DNA from: Candidatus Poribacteria bacterium
GTDB lineage: Bacteria > Poribacteria > WGA-4E > PCPOR2b
NCBI GenBank assembly: GCA_965116925.1
Contig: OZ220744.1
Coordinates: 224,001 to 288,000 of the forward strand
Length of the DNA: 64,000 nt
Reading direction: 5' to 3'
The notes beneath the pieces are model-generated. The model was given only the letters and a program-made list of their open reading frames with translations. It did not search any database and was not told the origin of the DNA. Shown here piece after piece: positions 40,519 through 46,371 of the stretch (the stretch's first letter is position 1; each line of letters opens with the position of its first letter). The translations under genes were made by a program, and so were the position numbers.

Positions 40519-41430
40519 TCAATACTCCACAACCTCCGCTGCTTTCAGCAAAGCCTCCCAATCCGCTCCTTTTTTGTCCTCAAGTTGACTCCGTTTGAAA
40601 GTCAGAATCAGTGTTGTTGCAGGTTTGCCACGGAATCTGTGGGGAAGACCTGGTGGAATCGGAGGTGTCGGCGGAACCGGAATACGAAGATGGAGCTGTC
40701 TCTCCTGCGATGCGATTTTCTCCTTCAGTTCTTTTATTTCTTCTACAACCTCTTTTGCCTCTTTAAGGATTTTCTTCTTCTCTGTGATTGTTTCCCTAGG
40801 TTCTTCTACGGTTGCTCTGGCGTCTTCAAGGTTTTCCCGCGTGTGAGGCATCGCATCTGCGCCAACGTGTTCGACGACGTGCATTTCAACCAAAAAATCT
40901 GTTTCAAGGTCAACCGCGTAATCAGGATAACCAAAAACCACAAACGAGATCCTATCATCAAACGTCAATTGACCAATACGGGATCCATACTCACCGACAA
41001 GATAAGCAAGCTGTTCCTTGAGTTCATCAACTTTCTCTTTACTATATGATTCGTTTTTATCAACCATCCATGCAGCTTCTTCTGGGTGACTTTGATGTCG
41101 AACTTCTCGTTCGTGTTTTTCCCACAAGTTCGTTTTCTTCTCTGTCTTAACGATCTTCATCTCTTTTTCCGCAACAGGAAACCGTACGTCAAGCAGGAAC
41201 ATAGCACCGTAACCTTCGAGATATAGGTGTTGGCAGCCGCCTCTACGGAAAAATCCGCCTTTGACATAATCGTTCTCAAATGTCTCGTCCATTGTTTCAT
41301 CAATAATTCGACACATCACCTTGAGGTCTTCCACCATCTCGGTGTAGTTAATTTCATCTTGTGCAGATATAGTGCTAGCAACCAAGCTGATGCCAAGCAC
41401 AGCTATAGTGAGAGTCACGTAGAATTTCAT
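40519..41430 (-). CDS. Hypothetical secreted protein in the ECF operon
   Basis: Signal peptide; YLEGYGAMF motif; coiled coil and Pro-rich segment. Confidence 0.7.
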   Translation of the reverse strand: MKFYVTLTIAVLGISLVASTISAQDEINYTEMVEDLKVMCRIIDETMDETFENDYVKGGFFRRGGCQHLYLEGYGAMFLLDVRFPVAEKEMKIVKTEKKTNLWEKHEREVRHQSHPEEAAWMVDKNESYSKEKVDELKEQLAYLVGEYGSRIGQLTFDDRISFVVFGYPDYAVDLETDFLVEMHVVEHVGADAMPHTRENLEDARATVEEPRETITEKKKILKEAKEVVEEIKELKEKIASQERQLHLRIPVPPTPPIPPGLPHRFRGKPATTLILTFKRSQLEDKKGADWEALLKAAEVVEY

Positions 41431-41508
41431 GATTGTATCCTCCTTTAATATGTGAATCTTCTGAGCCTTCGCGTTTCATGTTTTATACAATTTATAGTTT
41501 GTATAATG

Positions 41509-42216
41509 TTATTTCATATCCTCTTGTATTCCAGACACATGAGAAGCAAGGATGAACTCAAAGGCGCGTTGGGTCTCAAGAAATTCAGCTTCCGTCGCAC
41601 CGGCAAGGTGCTGAAGCTCTTGACGGATGAGCTCCAAGTCCTGTATCCGTTGTGATTGCAACCCCTGATAGATCAACGCCAGTTGTGCATCTGCCTGTTT
41701 CTGCCGTTCATCCAGATGGACTTGGAGTTGTTCGCTGAATTCATCCAACGCCCCTTGAAGTTGTTTTACTATTTCCACTTGGGTGGCGTGACGTTCTGTC
41801 TGAAGCAATCGTACCAATTCCTGCTCTGTAATCTCCGGGAGCACCTCTTGCCCAATCCTAAGCGTCAAGCCGCGGTCTTCCCACTTAAAATCAACACCAA
41901 TCCACGCCAGCGCAGAAAGACTGATGACCAAAATCAAACAAGCCGCTGCTCCCCAAGAGAGCCATCTCCATGCAGGCAATTGGGACCACCACGGCAAAGG
42001 TTTAGACTGTATTGCCCCATGCAACGCTTCTATGTCAATTGGACGATCTACCTCCGCCCACTGATCGAGGGTTCCTTGCGTCTCCTTTAGATTCGCTTGG
42101 AATTGTTCACACTCACGGCAAGTCTGTAAGTGTGCTTCCAACGTTTTTTTTCCTTCTGCGTCCAATTCCTCGTAGCTTCCAACCACAATCTGCTCTCTAA
42201 AAAACCTACAATCCAA
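41509..42216 (-). CDS. zf-HC2 anti-sigma factor with C-terminal coiled coil
   Basis: HLQTCREC and a TM helix; TTG start approximate. Confidence 0.8.
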   Translation of the reverse strand: MDCRFFREQIVVGSYEELDAEGKKTLEAHLQTCRECEQFQANLKETQGTLDQWAEVDRPIDIEALHGAIQSKPLPWWSQLPAWRWLSWGAAACLILVISLSALAWIGVDFKWEDRGLTLRIGQEVLPEITEQELVRLLQTERHATQVEIVKQLQGALDEFSEQLQVHLDERQKQADAQLALIYQGLQSQRIQDLELIRQELQHLAGATEAEFLETQRAFEFILASHVSGIQEDMK

Positions 42217-42263
42217 TGCCAACACCCCCTTTGTACGTAAATCAGCGATGAACGCTGAGAAAT

Positions 42264-42833
42264 TTATTCTTGCTTTGACAACATTCGACCAAGCCGTTCC
42301 ATTCCAGCTACCATCCGCGACTTGACCGTACTGATAGGACACTCCAAGATTTCAGCAATCTCTCGAAATTTCATGCCGTTGTAATGCCGCAGGGTAACCA
42401 CGACTCGCTGATCTTCCGGCAAACGCACCAACACCGAGCGTACCCTGTCTTCAATCTCTTTCTTCAGCACAGCTGCGTCCGGCAGATCCGACGGATCGAT
42501 AAATCTTTCGCCGAAACCTTCAGATTCTGACTCTAGATAGGCTGCAATCGGGGTCTCTTTTCGACGTTGTTGCTTGGCAAGCGTATCCAGACAGAGATTC
42601 GTTGCAATACGATACATCCATGTGGAGAATTTCGCCCTTGCACGAAACGTCTTGGCAGAACGATAGATGCGAAGAAACACCTCCTGCCGAAGATCTTCCG
42701 CTAACACGATGTCGTTAACCATTCGATAGCAATAATTCAGCAGCTGCTTCTCCCACCGTTTGACCAATGTATCAAACGAACGCAAATCACCCGTCTGAAG
42801 TTGGTGCATCAAAGCCTCATCTGATTTTTCCAC
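42264..42833 (-). CDS. ECF sigma factor
   Basis: AEDLRQEVFLRI, WMYRIATN, FREIAEIL..TVKSRM. Confidence 0.95.
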   Translation of the reverse strand: MEKSDEALMHQLQTGDLRSFDTLVKRWEKQLLNYCYRMVNDIVLAEDLRQEVFLRIYRSAKTFRARAKFSTWMYRIATNLCLDTLAKQQRRKETPIAAYLESESEGFGERFIDPSDLPDAAVLKKEIEDRVRSVLVRLPEDQRVVVTLRHYNGMKFREIAEILECPISTVKSRMVAGMERLGRMLSKQE

Positions 42834-43129
42834 GCTTACCTCCAGACTGGATGGTAATTTGGATGAGAAGGTTGGCTGATTTCGATCCGTTTAACCATAT
42901 AGACAGCTAAGACATGGAAAAAGACGAGATTTTTTAAAAAAAATTAGAGGGGCAGTAACTTTGGTGCTTATACGTGCCTTGTGGCATCTAAAAATAAAAA
43001 AGCCACCTCCCGATTCCAGCCTCCCTGTGTTCGGGGGGAGGATAAGAATCAAAGAGGTGGCTGATTTGGTGAGATTGGCATCTCACGGGGACGAAATGCG
43101 AATAGGGAGGAGAATTAGTGGAGATGTTG

Positions 43130-43176
43130 TTTATAGAAAAAGACCAAAACAAGACCGGCGCGACAACGCGCCGGTC
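43130..43176 (-). terminator. Intrinsic terminator of the orphan operon
   Basis: GACCGGCGCG-N4-CGCGCCGGTC 10-bp stem followed by a U-rich tract on the minus strand. Confidence 0.7.
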
Positions 43177-43210: not shown

Positions 43211-43777
43211 CTACAAATCCAATTCTGCCCGAAGTTTAGTCATGACCATTTCTGCGGTTTCGGCCCCCCACATTTTGGTGAAATGATCCTTTGCAACAGA
43301 TAATGATTTTTCTACAACCGGACGGGGGACCTCCGTGAGCAGGTTGCGAAGCTGCCCAAAAAGCGCGGCCTGGGCTGCTCGGGCCCGTTTCTGAAATGCT
43401 TCTTGTGCTTCGTTGGTGGGGTATACTTCCAAGAAATCCTCTGGTGACATGGTACTCACTTCAATAAGGTCCGGATAGGTTTCCTGAAACCACATATTCA
43501 GTTGATTAAATTGTTCAATCACCCAAGGGGCAACGTTTTCATCTGGAGCGAAGAGGGCAGCCTTATGTATCTCATGAACAGGAACGGGCTCGAAATACAT
43601 GTTCTGTGGCGGGTGGGTAGGCGGCACATCAACAGATGCCACCCGCTTGGGAGACCGCTTTGGCACTTTGTAGACTTTAACTGGTTCAGGTGGAGGCGTG
43701 TATCTCAGGTAGAAATAGAAGGCAACGCCCCCAATAAGTATCAAGAGACCCCCAAGTTGTATGGTTTGCTTTACCAT
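43211..43777 (-). CDS. Hypothetical N-terminally anchored protein
   Basis: Start MVKQ after GAGAGG; TM helix then PPPEPVKVYK. Confidence 0.7.
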   Translation of the reverse strand: MVKQTIQLGGLLILIGGVAFYFYLRYTPPPEPVKVYKVPKRSPKRVASVDVPPTHPPQNMYFEPVPVHEIHKAALFAPDENVAPWVIEQFNQLNMWFQETYPDLIEVSTMSPEDFLEVYPTNEAQEAFQKRARAAQAALFGQLRNLLTEVPRPVVEKSLSVAKDHFTKMWGAETAEMVMTKLRAELDL

Positions 43778-43933
43778 AATAAATAACCTCTCATCGGTTG
43801 GGGATGAGTCGAAGCACTTTGATGATGAAATTGAAGCAATGTAAAAAGAAAACACCAAAGGTGAGATGGATCTGACAACCAGGACCAGGTACAGGTTCAA
43901 AAATGTTTAAGAAAAATGGGGGAAGCCGGTTCA

Positions 43934-45109
43934 CTATTCGTTCGGTGAGGTGGTGCCTCGACGTGATGCCTCTTGCAGTGCCTCTTGGGCCTGACCGCTC
44001 TCTGGACCAAAACGTTGGACAGAATCCGTCTTGCCCAACGTGGGAATGGGCAAGGACTTTGAAACAACCGCTGCTTGGCTAAGTGTTTCTGCCCCCTCAG
44101 TAGTGGGATACGTACTAGCATCACTAACGCTAGCAGAATCTTCTGCGATAGAATGTTTCGTATCCCAAGTATGATGTGAGGTTTTTTGGGGCTTGGGGGG
44201 TGGTAGGGATTCAGCTTGGCGGACAGCCTGTTCAGCCCAAAGTGTCTCTTGTGCATTTGCAATATCGCTTTCAAAGAATACTCTAAGTGTCAGCGAGTCC
44301 TCCGGCAAAATCGCTAGTGCTTCAAAAAAGGTTTTGTAGCGGACATCCGCACGGTCTTGTGGGGTCAGCCACTTTTCTGTAAGATCGATAGGTTCCATTT
44401 CTCGTTTCTTTAGTGTTTCCAAATAGTGGTTCTCGACAAGCCTCGATTCGGATGGGGCATTTTCCTTCATCCACGCCCGAAGATCTTGAATGGGTTGAGT
44501 TAAATACTTCATCTGCGGGATTTCCTCATTCCATTTAATTTTCAACTGTGTATCCTCTATTGCTTTCTGGAGCGCTTCAGTTTCTCCAAAGAGTTCTCTT
44601 TCCAATTCAAAAAAACGAAGCCCACTTTCCAAATCCAAGTATCCATCTGCCATCAAACTATGTCCTCTAAGATGTAAGTATTCGGCCCAACTAGGGTCGC
44701 CGTCCCCAAGTGCCGCTGCTACTGCGTGAATCTTTTCCTGTGCCAATTCAAAGTTGGTTTCCTTAAGGGTGATGGCTTCGGCAAACGCTTTTTGAATAGT
44801 TTCATGACTGAGCTGGACTGAATGGCTTTTTTGCACTGATTTATTTTCTGCAGCAGTAGTCTGGATAGTCTCACGACTAAGCTGGGCTGAATGGCTTTTT
44901 TGCACCGCTTTATTTGTTGCAGTGGTCGGAGACGAAACTTTACCGGGTATTTGTTCACTGTGTGGGTGAGAATGGATGTCACTATGTTGATGATCCGGTA
45001 CATGGAGGTGCCCTACCATTACTTTTTCTGTCTCCCGCGTTTGTGAAACAAGGAATATTACAAGCAGGGAGAAGGACAGAAAAAATGCAAGCCATGGAAT
45101 CTTCTTCAT
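43934..45109 (-). CDS. Hypothetical N-terminally anchored protein, His-rich, with a 23-aa-period duplication
   Basis: TM helix; HLHVPDHQHSDIHSHPH; GGAGG RBS. Confidence 0.75.
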   Translation of the reverse strand: MKKIPWLAFFLSFSLLVIFLVSQTRETEKVMVGHLHVPDHQHSDIHSHPHSEQIPGKVSSPTTATNKAVQKSHSAQLSRETIQTTAAENKSVQKSHSVQLSHETIQKAFAEAITLKETNFELAQEKIHAVAAALGDGDPSWAEYLHLRGHSLMADGYLDLESGLRFFELERELFGETEALQKAIEDTQLKIKWNEEIPQMKYLTQPIQDLRAWMKENAPSESRLVENHYLETLKKREMEPIDLTEKWLTPQDRADVRYKTFFEALAILPEDSLTLRVFFESDIANAQETLWAEQAVRQAESLPPPKPQKTSHHTWDTKHSIAEDSASVSDASTYPTTEGAETLSQAAVVSKSLPIPTLGKTDSVQRFGPESGQAQEALQEASRRGTTSPNE

Positions 45110-45128
45110 TGTGCAATTTCCTCCGCGG

Positions 45129-45428
45129 TTAGTTTAATAATAGCAGAGCACTCATCAACGTAATGTAATGCCACCAGAAGTCGTCTGATTTGTTTTCTGG
45201 TGCCTTTTTGTTTTCTAGTACATTCGCCTTTTCTCGCTCTTCGTATATATAGGTGATTGTGGTTTCTGTGTGCTGCCTTCCGTCAACGTCAACCCATTCT
45301 TTTGTTTCTGCTATTTCGCCAACTTTCACCTTCTCCATTTTCACGGTTCCCGAGCACCCCTGTAGAAACCATGAAACCGAAAGCAGAATCACAGCGCACC
45401 ACAAAGAATACTTCAAAGAGTATTTCAT
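45129..45428 (-). CDS. Small putative lipoprotein (paralog 2)
   Basis: LQGC lipobox; GGAGGA RBS; shared 35-aa module. Confidence 0.8.
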   Translation of the reverse strand: MKYSLKYSLWCAVILLSVSWFLQGCSGTVKMEKVKVGEIAETKEWVDVDGRQHTETTITYIYEEREKANVLENKKAPENKSDDFWWHYITLMSALLLLN

Positions 45429-45467
45429 TTTCCTCCTCCATTGTTGTTGATGAAGAATTCAGCAACA

Positions 45468-45773
45468 CTACCCTCCCCCGAGGAGTCCAGCAACAGCTAC
45501 TCCAGCGGCAATTAGTGCTGCTATTTTCGCGGGGTCGCTATACCAGTGTGAGTGATGTCTTTCTCGCTCTTCGTAAATATACGTCGTTACAACCCTTGTG
45601 TGCTTTTTTCCATCAGAGTCAGTCCATTCAGTCGTTTCCGTTATCTGGCCAACTTTCACTTTCTCTGTTTGGTAGTCAGCAATGGTATCAGGAGTGAATG
45701 GGAAGACGTTTATTAGAAATAAGCATAAAACAAAAATTCGCAAACAATGGTGTTTCCAAAAATTGCGTTTCAT
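45468..45773 (-). CDS. Small secreted protein (paralog 1)
   Basis: Signal peptide; AAGGAGG RBS; Ala/Gly-rich hydrophobic C-terminus. Confidence 0.8.
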   Translation of the reverse strand: MKRNFWKHHCLRIFVLCLFLINVFPFTPDTIADYQTEKVKVGQITETTEWTDSDGKKHTRVVTTYIYEERERHHSHWYSDPAKIAALIAAGVAVAGLLGGG

Positions 45774-45990
45774 TGTATATCCTCCTTGTAAAAATTGTCA
45801 AGAAAATTAGAAGGTTGCTTCAGGGTAAGCGGGGGTGGAAGTGTCCTGAAGTTTCCTATTAATTTGTGCCTGTCACGGTAAGAATAACACGGAATAATCC
45901 CAGTAGAATCGACCCATGCACTGCGCCAATATAAATTTGCTTGAGACGTTCTACCCCGGACTCCTTCCGGGACTTTCATAACCTCTGTAG

Positions 45991-46006
45991 GCAATTACCA
46001 TGCCAA
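45991..46006 (-). promoter_or_regulatory. sigma54 (-24/-12) promoter of the orphan operon
   Basis: Minus strand TTGGCATGGTAATTGC. Confidence 0.75.
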
Positions 46007-46091
46007 AAAAGGCAAGAACGCCCCAAAGTCAGTCACCATAAGGCTTTCAGCGAAATACGGCAAAAAATTGTCGAAGGAATTAACCCTATTG

Positions 46092-46141
46092 TTAGCAACT
46101 GTTGCTAAGCAACTAGTGCTAATATTGGCAACTATTGCTAA
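46092..46141. promoter_or_regulatory. Three 17-bp palindromic operator/enhancer sites
   Basis: TTAGCAACTGTTGCTAA, TAAGCAACTAGTGCTAA, TTGGCAACTATTGCTAA. Confidence 0.65.
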
Positions 46142-46371
46142 CATTTTTGCACGTTCGATTCTGTTACGAAACGGTTGCCCCAGATAACGATAGTGTGTTG
46201 ACGTTTCCGTGTTGATGGAGAATTAAAGGAATGCAAAAGCGGCAGCGGGAGTAAGGTAGTGTGGAATCTCTAAAGAGATGTGCGAAAGACGAGATTATTT
46301 CAGGGGGAAAATTCAAGGACCTGACGTTTTACGTTTCACGTTTCACGTCCAATATGGTATTATACTCAAAC

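Follow-up and report, generated by a model that had tools for sequence, protein, structure and literature searches.

The gene of the lipase-specific foldase (Lif) adjoins the lipase gene, and its product is built from an N-terminal anchor, a linker and a helical domain. In other envelope systems, the pilin gene pilA is under sigma54 control, and the curli subunits CsgA and CsgB are two small exported, beta-rich paralogues encoded in tandem. Excerpts of the literature describe Lif as a membrane-bound helper dedicated to one exported lipase (PMC7046727, PMC3352829), TfpY of Pseudomonas aeruginosa as an accessory protein that likely interacts with the pilin and aids assembly (PMC11841053), and MgCRP-I as an animal peptide family in which a conserved leader precedes a hypervariable, Cys-rich mature part (PMC4558851). 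Here we analyse an operon of four genes, A to D, at positions 43,211 to 46,141 of a 64,000-nucleotide stretch (the window) from a Candidatus Poribacteria bacterium (assembly GCA_965116925.1, contig OZ220744.1, positions 224,001 to 288,000). It is an accessory insert with exchanged cargo and very probably belongs to a Poribacteria class of cassettes in which a small exported protein is combined with a membrane-anchored partner.

Gene C would resemble Lif as a membrane-bound helper for one exported cargo; here, however, a hairpin of 60-70 amino acids takes the place of the enzyme as cargo, and the cassettes occur in many copies and are hypervariable. The Pfam family of Lif (PF03280) has no member in the genome beyond one match elsewhere at E 0.5, and the Lif fold is not among the structural matches listed for the model of C. 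With the pilin and TfpY the operon shares the combination of a variable envelope subunit and an accessory protein, whereas A and B carry Sec- or lipoprotein-type signals instead of a class III (prepilin) signal and match no pilin family in Pfam or NCBIfam; no homology to TfpY was detected. Compared with curli, A and B have no curlin repeats, carry one module per chain and end in hydrophobic C-terminal tails, and the genome has no CsgG (the CsgG and curlin searches were positive in E. coli controls). B shares with T1 gp11, as the excerpt of PMC6139136 presents it, a lipobox, a beta-rich Cys-free middle and a C-terminal hydrophobic segment, but here there is no lysis cassette and no sequence match, and a paralogue lacks the lipobox. 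The cassette class and MgCRP-I both place conserved signal peptides before hypervariable Cys-rich mature parts, whereas the class is bacterial, promoter-linked and paired with a partner gene, and A and B are without mature disulfides. At the sequence level, the homology that defines Lif, TfpY and pilins, or the unimolecular spanins (u-spanins) was not detected. We found no description of these cassettes in the literature, and the excerpt of PMC5087111 does not mention them.

An exchangeable insert beside rnpB

The window genome (G000) is a single contig of 6.47 Mb and 99% complete. Flanked by rnpB (RF00010, 46375-46745) on one side and a gene for an extracytoplasmic function (ECF) sigma factor (42264-42833) on the other, the operon forms a 3.35-kb insert that adjoins rnpB and lies between 16-nt direct repeats (Table 1); a motif built on this repeat occurs only twice in the genome, as the left and the right copy. 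The GC content of the operon is mostly 43-48%, locally 50%, compared with 49% for the genome. The slot is empty in 14 of 19 congeners, where the ECF gene lies at most 300 bp from rnpB (in one of them as judged from a partial match), and each of the nine empty slots printed holds one copy of the repeat. The second half of a split rnpB (L026) was dropped from the set of empty sites.

Other congeners carry different contents at this position. In G014 the same promoter is followed, between two repeat copies, by an unrelated 140-amino-acid, Cys-containing exported-type protein and a 325-amino-acid partner. G017 holds a third, different cargo, again a small protein with a partner and again bracketed by the repeat, G002 a related leader interrupted by an insertion sequence (IS), and G003 a remnant of gene C. 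The operon is an accessory insert, and cargo is exchanged at the rnpB slot. A likely swap point is a 36-nt leader element with the ribosome-binding site (RBS), which ends at the start codon of gene A: contigs of two runs (X4 and X5) carry gene A yet part from the window sequence exactly at 45806. We infer one ancestral insertion, with later cargo exchange between conserved ends.

A promoter module common to many cassettes

The operon is preceded by a module of about 165 nt that consists of two or three palindromes, a conserved spacer and a -24/-12 site. A model built from four G000 copies and the G014 copy finds six copies in G000 at E 2e-31 or better, two of them outside the model-building set, and the window promoter matches the G014 copy in the same slot at 87% on the DNA level. 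Searched as a single sequence, it matches 16 of 19 congeners (14 at E <1e-8, two weakly) and 0 of 9 other family genomes. The position of the palindromes is conserved over 26 distinct copies, 25 of which contain at least one pattern-matching site, and the spacer (46006-46049) holds what we take to be an IHF-like box. By hand count, a small exported-type gene comes first or second behind 22 of the 26 distinct strong copies, the window's included; the remaining four precede an IS, an unrelated enzyme gene or larger membrane proteins.

This module is common to the operon and other cassettes. The operon is likely switched on through sigma54, and the palindromes are likely to act as an enhancer for a sigma54 activator, of which the genome encodes 16, one near a promoter copy. 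An earlier note on this DNA had placed the four co-oriented genes between a sigma54 site and a terminator, and all of these elements are present, on the minus strand. The terminator stem spans 43176-43153 with the T tail after it; overall, the totals of the sigma70 and terminator scans were not above those of shuffled sequences. A sigma70-like site with 11/12 matching positions (45801-45772) was rejected as a promoter, as it overlaps the RBS and start of A and its TTGACA reads TTGATA in relatives.

As a separate observation, a sigma54 activator gene without an obvious N-terminal sensory domain (G000:C1:2829523-2830578) sits about 1.3 kb upstream of a copy of the promoter module, in divergent orientation, and is a candidate regulator.

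A phylum-wide class of cassettes

The window operon has the layout of the class, a small signal-peptide protein and then an N-terminally anchored partner, and this layout recurs across cassettes, which the earlier note had named as support for a system. Many partners end in a tail of the form G-x-EEGLRRL, present in seven genes of G000. A model of this tail matches 105 of 151 phylum genomes, with 1-32 copies each; it finds no PDB sequence at E 1 and only sub-threshold matches in Pfam. The 49 small proteins collected from the class form 26 clusters without links between them, share a few families of signal peptide and have a high content of Cys, His, Trp and Tyr; the members of this set are not independent, a few are mis-parsed and the cleavage sites follow a crude rule. 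Among 55 cassette pairs with similar signal peptides, the mean likeness of the partner middles is 0.64 where the mature parts are alike (n=13) and 0.09 where they are unlike (n=33). In G017, an intact B, with a short remnant of the start of C behind it, is part of an island of such cassettes, which places B in the class independently of the promoter. The operon, an orphan in the earlier note, is with high confidence one cargo of this phylum-wide class.

Several further members of the class were seen. The G017 island (L005, G017:C2:4770000-4789999) extends over 15 kb with at least five small-protein or partner cassettes, and an integrase-like gene lies on the opposite strand beside B. A family of 65-73 amino acids is the first open reading frame after the promoter at L042, L043, L056, L057, L068, L070-L072, L075 and L076; its signal peptide is near-constant, its mature parts of 32-40 amino acids are hypervariable and rich in His, Cys and Trp (with a His start in 8/10), and a full partner gene is kept at 3/10 distinct loci. 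Behind one 65-amino-acid peptide gene (4673913), a 567-amino-acid multi-pass membrane protein is encoded (G000:C1:4675000-4676700), presumably similar to a membrane glycosyltransferase. At G000:C1:2832437-2836276, one small exported gene is followed by three tandem tail-bearing partner paralogues. At L118, L119, L120, L121 and L031, a small protein that combines a hydrophobic helix with a tail rich in Cys and His precedes a multi-pass membrane protein of 93-144 amino acids; this layout resembles a bacteriocin with its immunity gene, and D-like genes lie nearby.

The predicted hairpin proteins A and B

The two small reading frames, the Ala/Gly-rich tail of A and the lipobox and hydrophobic tail of B are as the earlier note described them; the 15-residue Kyte-Doolittle hydropathy (KD) is 2.59 for A and 1.48 for B. 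The 24/35 identical residues of the module common to A and B were recovered. The corresponding DNA (45560-45665 in A, 45230-45335 in B) is 74% identical over 106 nt. The local score of A against B is 141, far above the 26 +/- 5 (maximum 54) of 5000 shuffles, and outside the module it is no better than shuffles; the module is the sole common part. Most likely, the B module was duplicated and its copy, set between a new signal peptide and a new tail, became A. The signal peptides were called from hydropathy rules and from the AlphaFold helix. The lipobox-like sequence of B reads LQG-C25, and LspA is encoded in the genome. A, B and C carry clear AGGAGG-type RBSs.

For A, AlphaFold (five sequences) predicts a signal helix, strands 32-51 and 57-75 and a C-terminal helix, with a predicted TM-score (pTM) of 0.36. 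The long beta-hairpin anticipated in the earlier note corresponds to residues 32-75, and its predicted local distance difference test (pLDDT) exceeds 90 over 41-70. Among the eight strand faces the best mean KD is +0.4 and seven are negative; Glu and Lys are invariant, and no side is apolar. Insertion of the hairpin into a membrane is unlikely because no strand face is apolar. The net charges are -2 and -5. A has no mature Cys and, by the crude rule, Asp at its mature start, and so departs from the Cys-stapled, His-first feature of the class.

The anchored partners C and D

The AlphaFold model of C shows a helical core at about 100-298, with pLDDT mostly 70-90, between disordered linkers. The top structural match of the first half of the core is a tetratricopeptide repeat (TPR) domain (Z 7.3, root-mean-square deviation 3.4, 89 residues), and the core is predicted to be all-helical and loosely TPR-like. 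Residues 200-272 matched several retroviral capsid N-terminal domains at Z <=5.7, which we attribute to a widespread arrangement of helices. The linker contains a 69-nt tandem repeat (44793-44922) whose copy number varies among homologues. Relatives of C comprise six database proteins and, among 28 family genomes, only the G003 remnant in the same slot; one homologue (P0008) carries the class tail, at E 2e-7 against the tail model.

D lies 156 nt behind C with a weaker RBS (GAGAGG). Its likely start is the ATG at 43777, which agrees with the homologues P0009-P0011; a 229-amino-acid call from a TTG start was rejected in its favour. Homologues at 29-33% occur in 5 of 28 family genomes, beside other small proteins, and relatives at 56-87% exist. 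D may be a second, more general helper that is present in other cassettes.

Table 1. Positions of the operon genes and of the elements around them in the window
Feature	Position	Strand	Description
Gene A, 101 aa	45468..45773	-	signal-peptide-like N-terminus, beta-hairpin module, HHSHW linker, Ala/Gly-rich hydrophobic C-terminal helix
Gene B, 99 aa	45129..45428	-	lipobox (C25), same module, acidic linker, shorter hydrophobic tail
Gene C, 391 aa	43934..45109	-	N-terminal anchor, His-rich linker, helical core ~100-298, disordered tail without the class tail motif
Gene D, 188 aa	43211..43777	-	N-terminal anchor, Pro-rich linker, ~105-aa C-terminal domain
Sigma54-type -24/-12 site, TGGCA-N6-TTGC	45991..46005	-	kept in 26/26 distinct module copies
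Three palindromes, TTAGYAA-N3-TTRCTAA type	46090..46143	-	inverted repeat I1; ~135, 116 and 102 nt upstream of the -24 element
Conserved promoter-module spacer	46006..46049	-	alignments
36-nt RBS/leader element common to other cargoes	45771..45806	-	matches in G014, G002, G013 and G017 before unrelated genes
Intrinsic-terminator-like hairpin with T tail	43143..43176	-	10-pair stem, 9 G-C
16-nt direct repeat at the insert boundary, left copy	46285..46300	-	repeat family D7
16-nt direct repeat, right copy, before the ECF sigma gene	42920..42935	-	

Selection and distribution

The ratio of nonsynonymous to synonymous substitution rates (dN/dS) is 0.31 over 88 codons for B against its G017 orthologue, 0.30 for the modules of A and B, and 0.31-0.42 for the C-terminal domain of D against four distant homologues, the last with dS near saturation. 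These values indicate purifying selection on the genes, the absence of which would have counted against the system proposed in the earlier note. The cassette is covered by contigs of four runs, of which X2 matches without a difference over 2953 nt, X3 comes close, and X4 and X5, both small-share runs, are about 90% alike; a single X5 contig reaches from D through C and B into the 3' half of A. None of the holders listed was an RNA run, which says nothing either way about expression. In B and C the indels shown preserve the reading frame; D has two one-base indels that cancel each other out, and gene A has no indels over three runs. P0002 (A), P0003 (C) and P0010 (D) share the longest-contig figure 4989, consistent with a further complete copy. 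A, B, C and D are co-inherited in related strains; homologues that stand singly, which the earlier note held to be a refutation, are found in part, for B and D.

Homologues of A are P0001 (98%) and P0002 (85%), and relatives of B are the G017 orthologue and P0015-P0017. Of 176 phylum genomes, two (G000 and G017) contain strong matches to the A/B module, and a GTDB-wide scan found one locus, on the G017 contig. Profile search of 1.84 billion representatives gave five matches. One is A-type and three are B-type, of which one is truncated and another runs on into a different frame; the fifth (P0018), an unrelated repeat sequence, was dropped. Among the representatives, B-type clusters stand 3 to 1 to A-type. 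The module is rare, confined to the genus among named genomes, and its family is tiny. Three weak phylum matches (E 0.002-0.007) were set aside as signal-peptide similarity in other proteins, and two JGI metagenome scans gave no relatives among 166 and 593 pattern matches. As in the earlier note, none of the four genes could be assigned to a family: Pfam gave nothing below E 0.19, the best PHROG match was at E 0.05, and NCBIfam had none at E 0.1. In the ESM Atlas, A scored 0.82 at best and D 0.77, at low recognition, and VIA matched only the two helices of A (Z <=5.6).

Proposed role and alternative explanations

Tentatively, and with confidence a little short of even, we read the operon as a sigma54-induced, strain-variable envelope element, in which A and B are membrane-held polar hairpins, C is their dedicated helper and D a general one. 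A common sigma54 activator would bind the palindromes and co-induce the cassettes. A would be cut by signal peptidase I and B lipidated, their C-terminal helices would hold both in a membrane, and both hairpins would project roughly 6-7 nm from it. C may bind, fold or present the A/B hairpin, akin to a lipase foldase or a pilin accessory protein, with D as a more general second helper, and the product could be an envelope component for recognition that varies between strains. Membership in the class is far firmer than this helper function or the purpose of the system, both of which are inferred.

Several observations weigh against this proposal. Only 17 of 40 tail loci, hand-picked from the best rows, have a small exported gene directly upstream under a strict rule; three have a 267-amino-acid lipoprotein-like gene there, and the remainder nothing. 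When all 29 pairs are taken, the signal peptide predicts the partner (partial rho 0.37) at least as well as the mature part does (0.25), and co-variation of partner and mature region may be plain co-inheritance of adjacent DNA. Gene A is the sole Cys-free and C-terminally hydrophobic protein among the 49 small class proteins (B lies outside this set), and the tail of B is only moderately hydrophobic. Six of seven C sequences, those of the window and of five relatives closer to it than P0008, have lost the tail motif; a Z of 7.3, as for the C core, is also reached by common helical arrangements, and for the models of A and C no Foldseek match reached E 0.001. Finally, gene A has 5 synonymous and 12 changed codons in X4, where selection is weak, and 11 and 12 in X5 (40 of 46 variant rows), a sign of weak to moderate constraint.

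A wider view goes further, and we hold it to be possible though doubtful. Poribacteria might hold an exchangeable library of dozens of unrelated mini-proteins, each with a tethered presenter that docks via the common tail on a shared, undescribed export or display machine under one sigma54 regulon, as a counterpart of animal hypervariable peptides for strain-specific recognition in sponges. With the same reserve, the library would comprise Cys-stapled peptides, helical hairpins and long beta-hairpins. A and B would be its Cys-free, self-anchored branch, whose presenter dropped the tail as the cargo stays in the membrane.

Polymorphic antagonism would make A and/or B membrane-active, bacteriocin-like toxins from which C and D protect the producer. 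The insert is accessory and swappable with cargo before partner, the tail of A has G/A-xxx-G/A spacing, G000 has tandem partners without a small gene of their own, and elsewhere in the class, helical, hydrophobic peptides bracketed by Cys have small membrane proteins encoded behind them, all of which suits such a role. Toxin-immunity is weakened, however, because cargo stands intact without partners: B is intact in G017 where C is a short remnant, and one peptide family keeps a full partner at only three of ten distinct loci, seven being without. B moreover bears a lipid-anchor signal, and no toxin family matched in Pfam, PHROG or NCBIfam. Intact cargo without a partner can possibly be reconciled with immunity through a silent gene or protection in trans, but overall we regard antagonism as unlikely.

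The earlier note suggested that the hairpins could form a polymer, either a fibre or a pore (here taken as a beta-barrel), with B as nucleator or immunity factor and C and D as assembly factors. This idea can draw on the two tandem paralogues, on the confidently predicted long hairpin and on alpha-haemolysin-type pore stems in the top Foldseek rows, which at E ~0.5 are not significant. The strand faces, all eight at KD <=+0.4 with invariant Glu and Lys, and the negative net charges speak against a pore; beta-barrel pore toxins, in contrast, have an amphipathic hairpin with an apolar lipid-facing side. The lack of CsgG and curlin repeats in the 99% complete G000, the single module and hairpin per chain and the hydrophobic C-terminal tail of both chains speak against a curli-like fibre. 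Nor is there support for B as a nucleator or immunity factor for A, as it occurs without A in G017 and its clusters outnumber those of A-type. We consider a fibre or pore improbable; a soluble ring or sheet of tethered hairpins is possible.

Peptide signalling, in which a processed piece of A or B would be sensed by a cognate C and the class tail would dock on a shared sensor that activates the sigma54 promoter, appears quite improbable to us. C has few cytoplasmic residues and its tail is lost here, the insert has no sensor or activator gene, and A and B look tethered rather than diffusible; these points outweigh the single promoter module for many cargoes, the tail common to the class and the peptide-receptor TPR proteins (Rgg, Rap) among the weak matches of C (Z <=5.5).

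B as a u-spanin would have its lipid anchor in the outer and its tail in the inner membrane, and collapse into the hairpin would draw the membranes together for vesicle release or lysis. Its topology is that of T1 gp11, with a lipoprotein signal, a beta-rich Cys-free periplasmic part and a C-terminal transmembrane domain in the account excerpted from PMC6139136; yet there is no holin or endolysin in the insert or the scanned neighbours and no significant PHROG match, about 58 residues lie between the anchors, and A has the module without a lipobox, which leaves this role very improbable.

That small proteins rich in His and Cys, together with the His-rich linkers of their partners, capture metals in the periplasm is just as hard to credit: the mature part starts with His in 18 of 49 class proteins against 3 of 360 larger exported proteins, Cys (5.3% vs 0.4%) and His (5.3% vs 2.0%) are enriched relative to the latter, and A and C have the HHSHW and His-rich linkers, but the 49 proteins are not independent (26 clusters) and were parsed by a crude cleavage rule, A and B lack His at the first mature position and any mature Cys except the lipidation site of B, and the idea fits poorly with hypervariability.

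The locus ties together a defined regulatory module, a bounded insertion site with swapped cargo and a phylum-wide partner tail. What the analysis brings out for this locus is the bounded slot with its swapped cargo, the module with its enhancer-like palindromes, how often the tail occurs across the phylum and a hairpin variant that is Cys-free and self-anchored. Poribacteria are uncultured, and the cassettes are among their most strain-variable genes; if partner and cargo bind allele-specifically, this would be an undescribed way to diversify a symbiont envelope. The tiny family of the A/B hairpin limits the general reach of the operon itself.

Neighbouring genes and minor observations

Beside the insert, the region 40519-42833 contains the ECF sigma gene followed by genes for a 277-amino-acid anti-sigma-like and a 303-amino-acid exported-type protein, the latter two without a Pfam match; the region is conserved beside rnpB throughout the genus. 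In G015, rnpB (L025 and L026, G015:C5:5970511-5973364) is split by about 2.3 kb, through either an insertion or an assembly error.

The search for relatives of the module also returned a viral contig, L004, by a chance 23-amino-acid match in an unrelated 529-amino-acid phage protein, and this match was rejected. On that contig (4311-7551), a reverse transcriptase gene (PF00078) lies directly behind the structural-looking 529-amino-acid gene, a layout that we take to resemble a diversity-generating retroelement.

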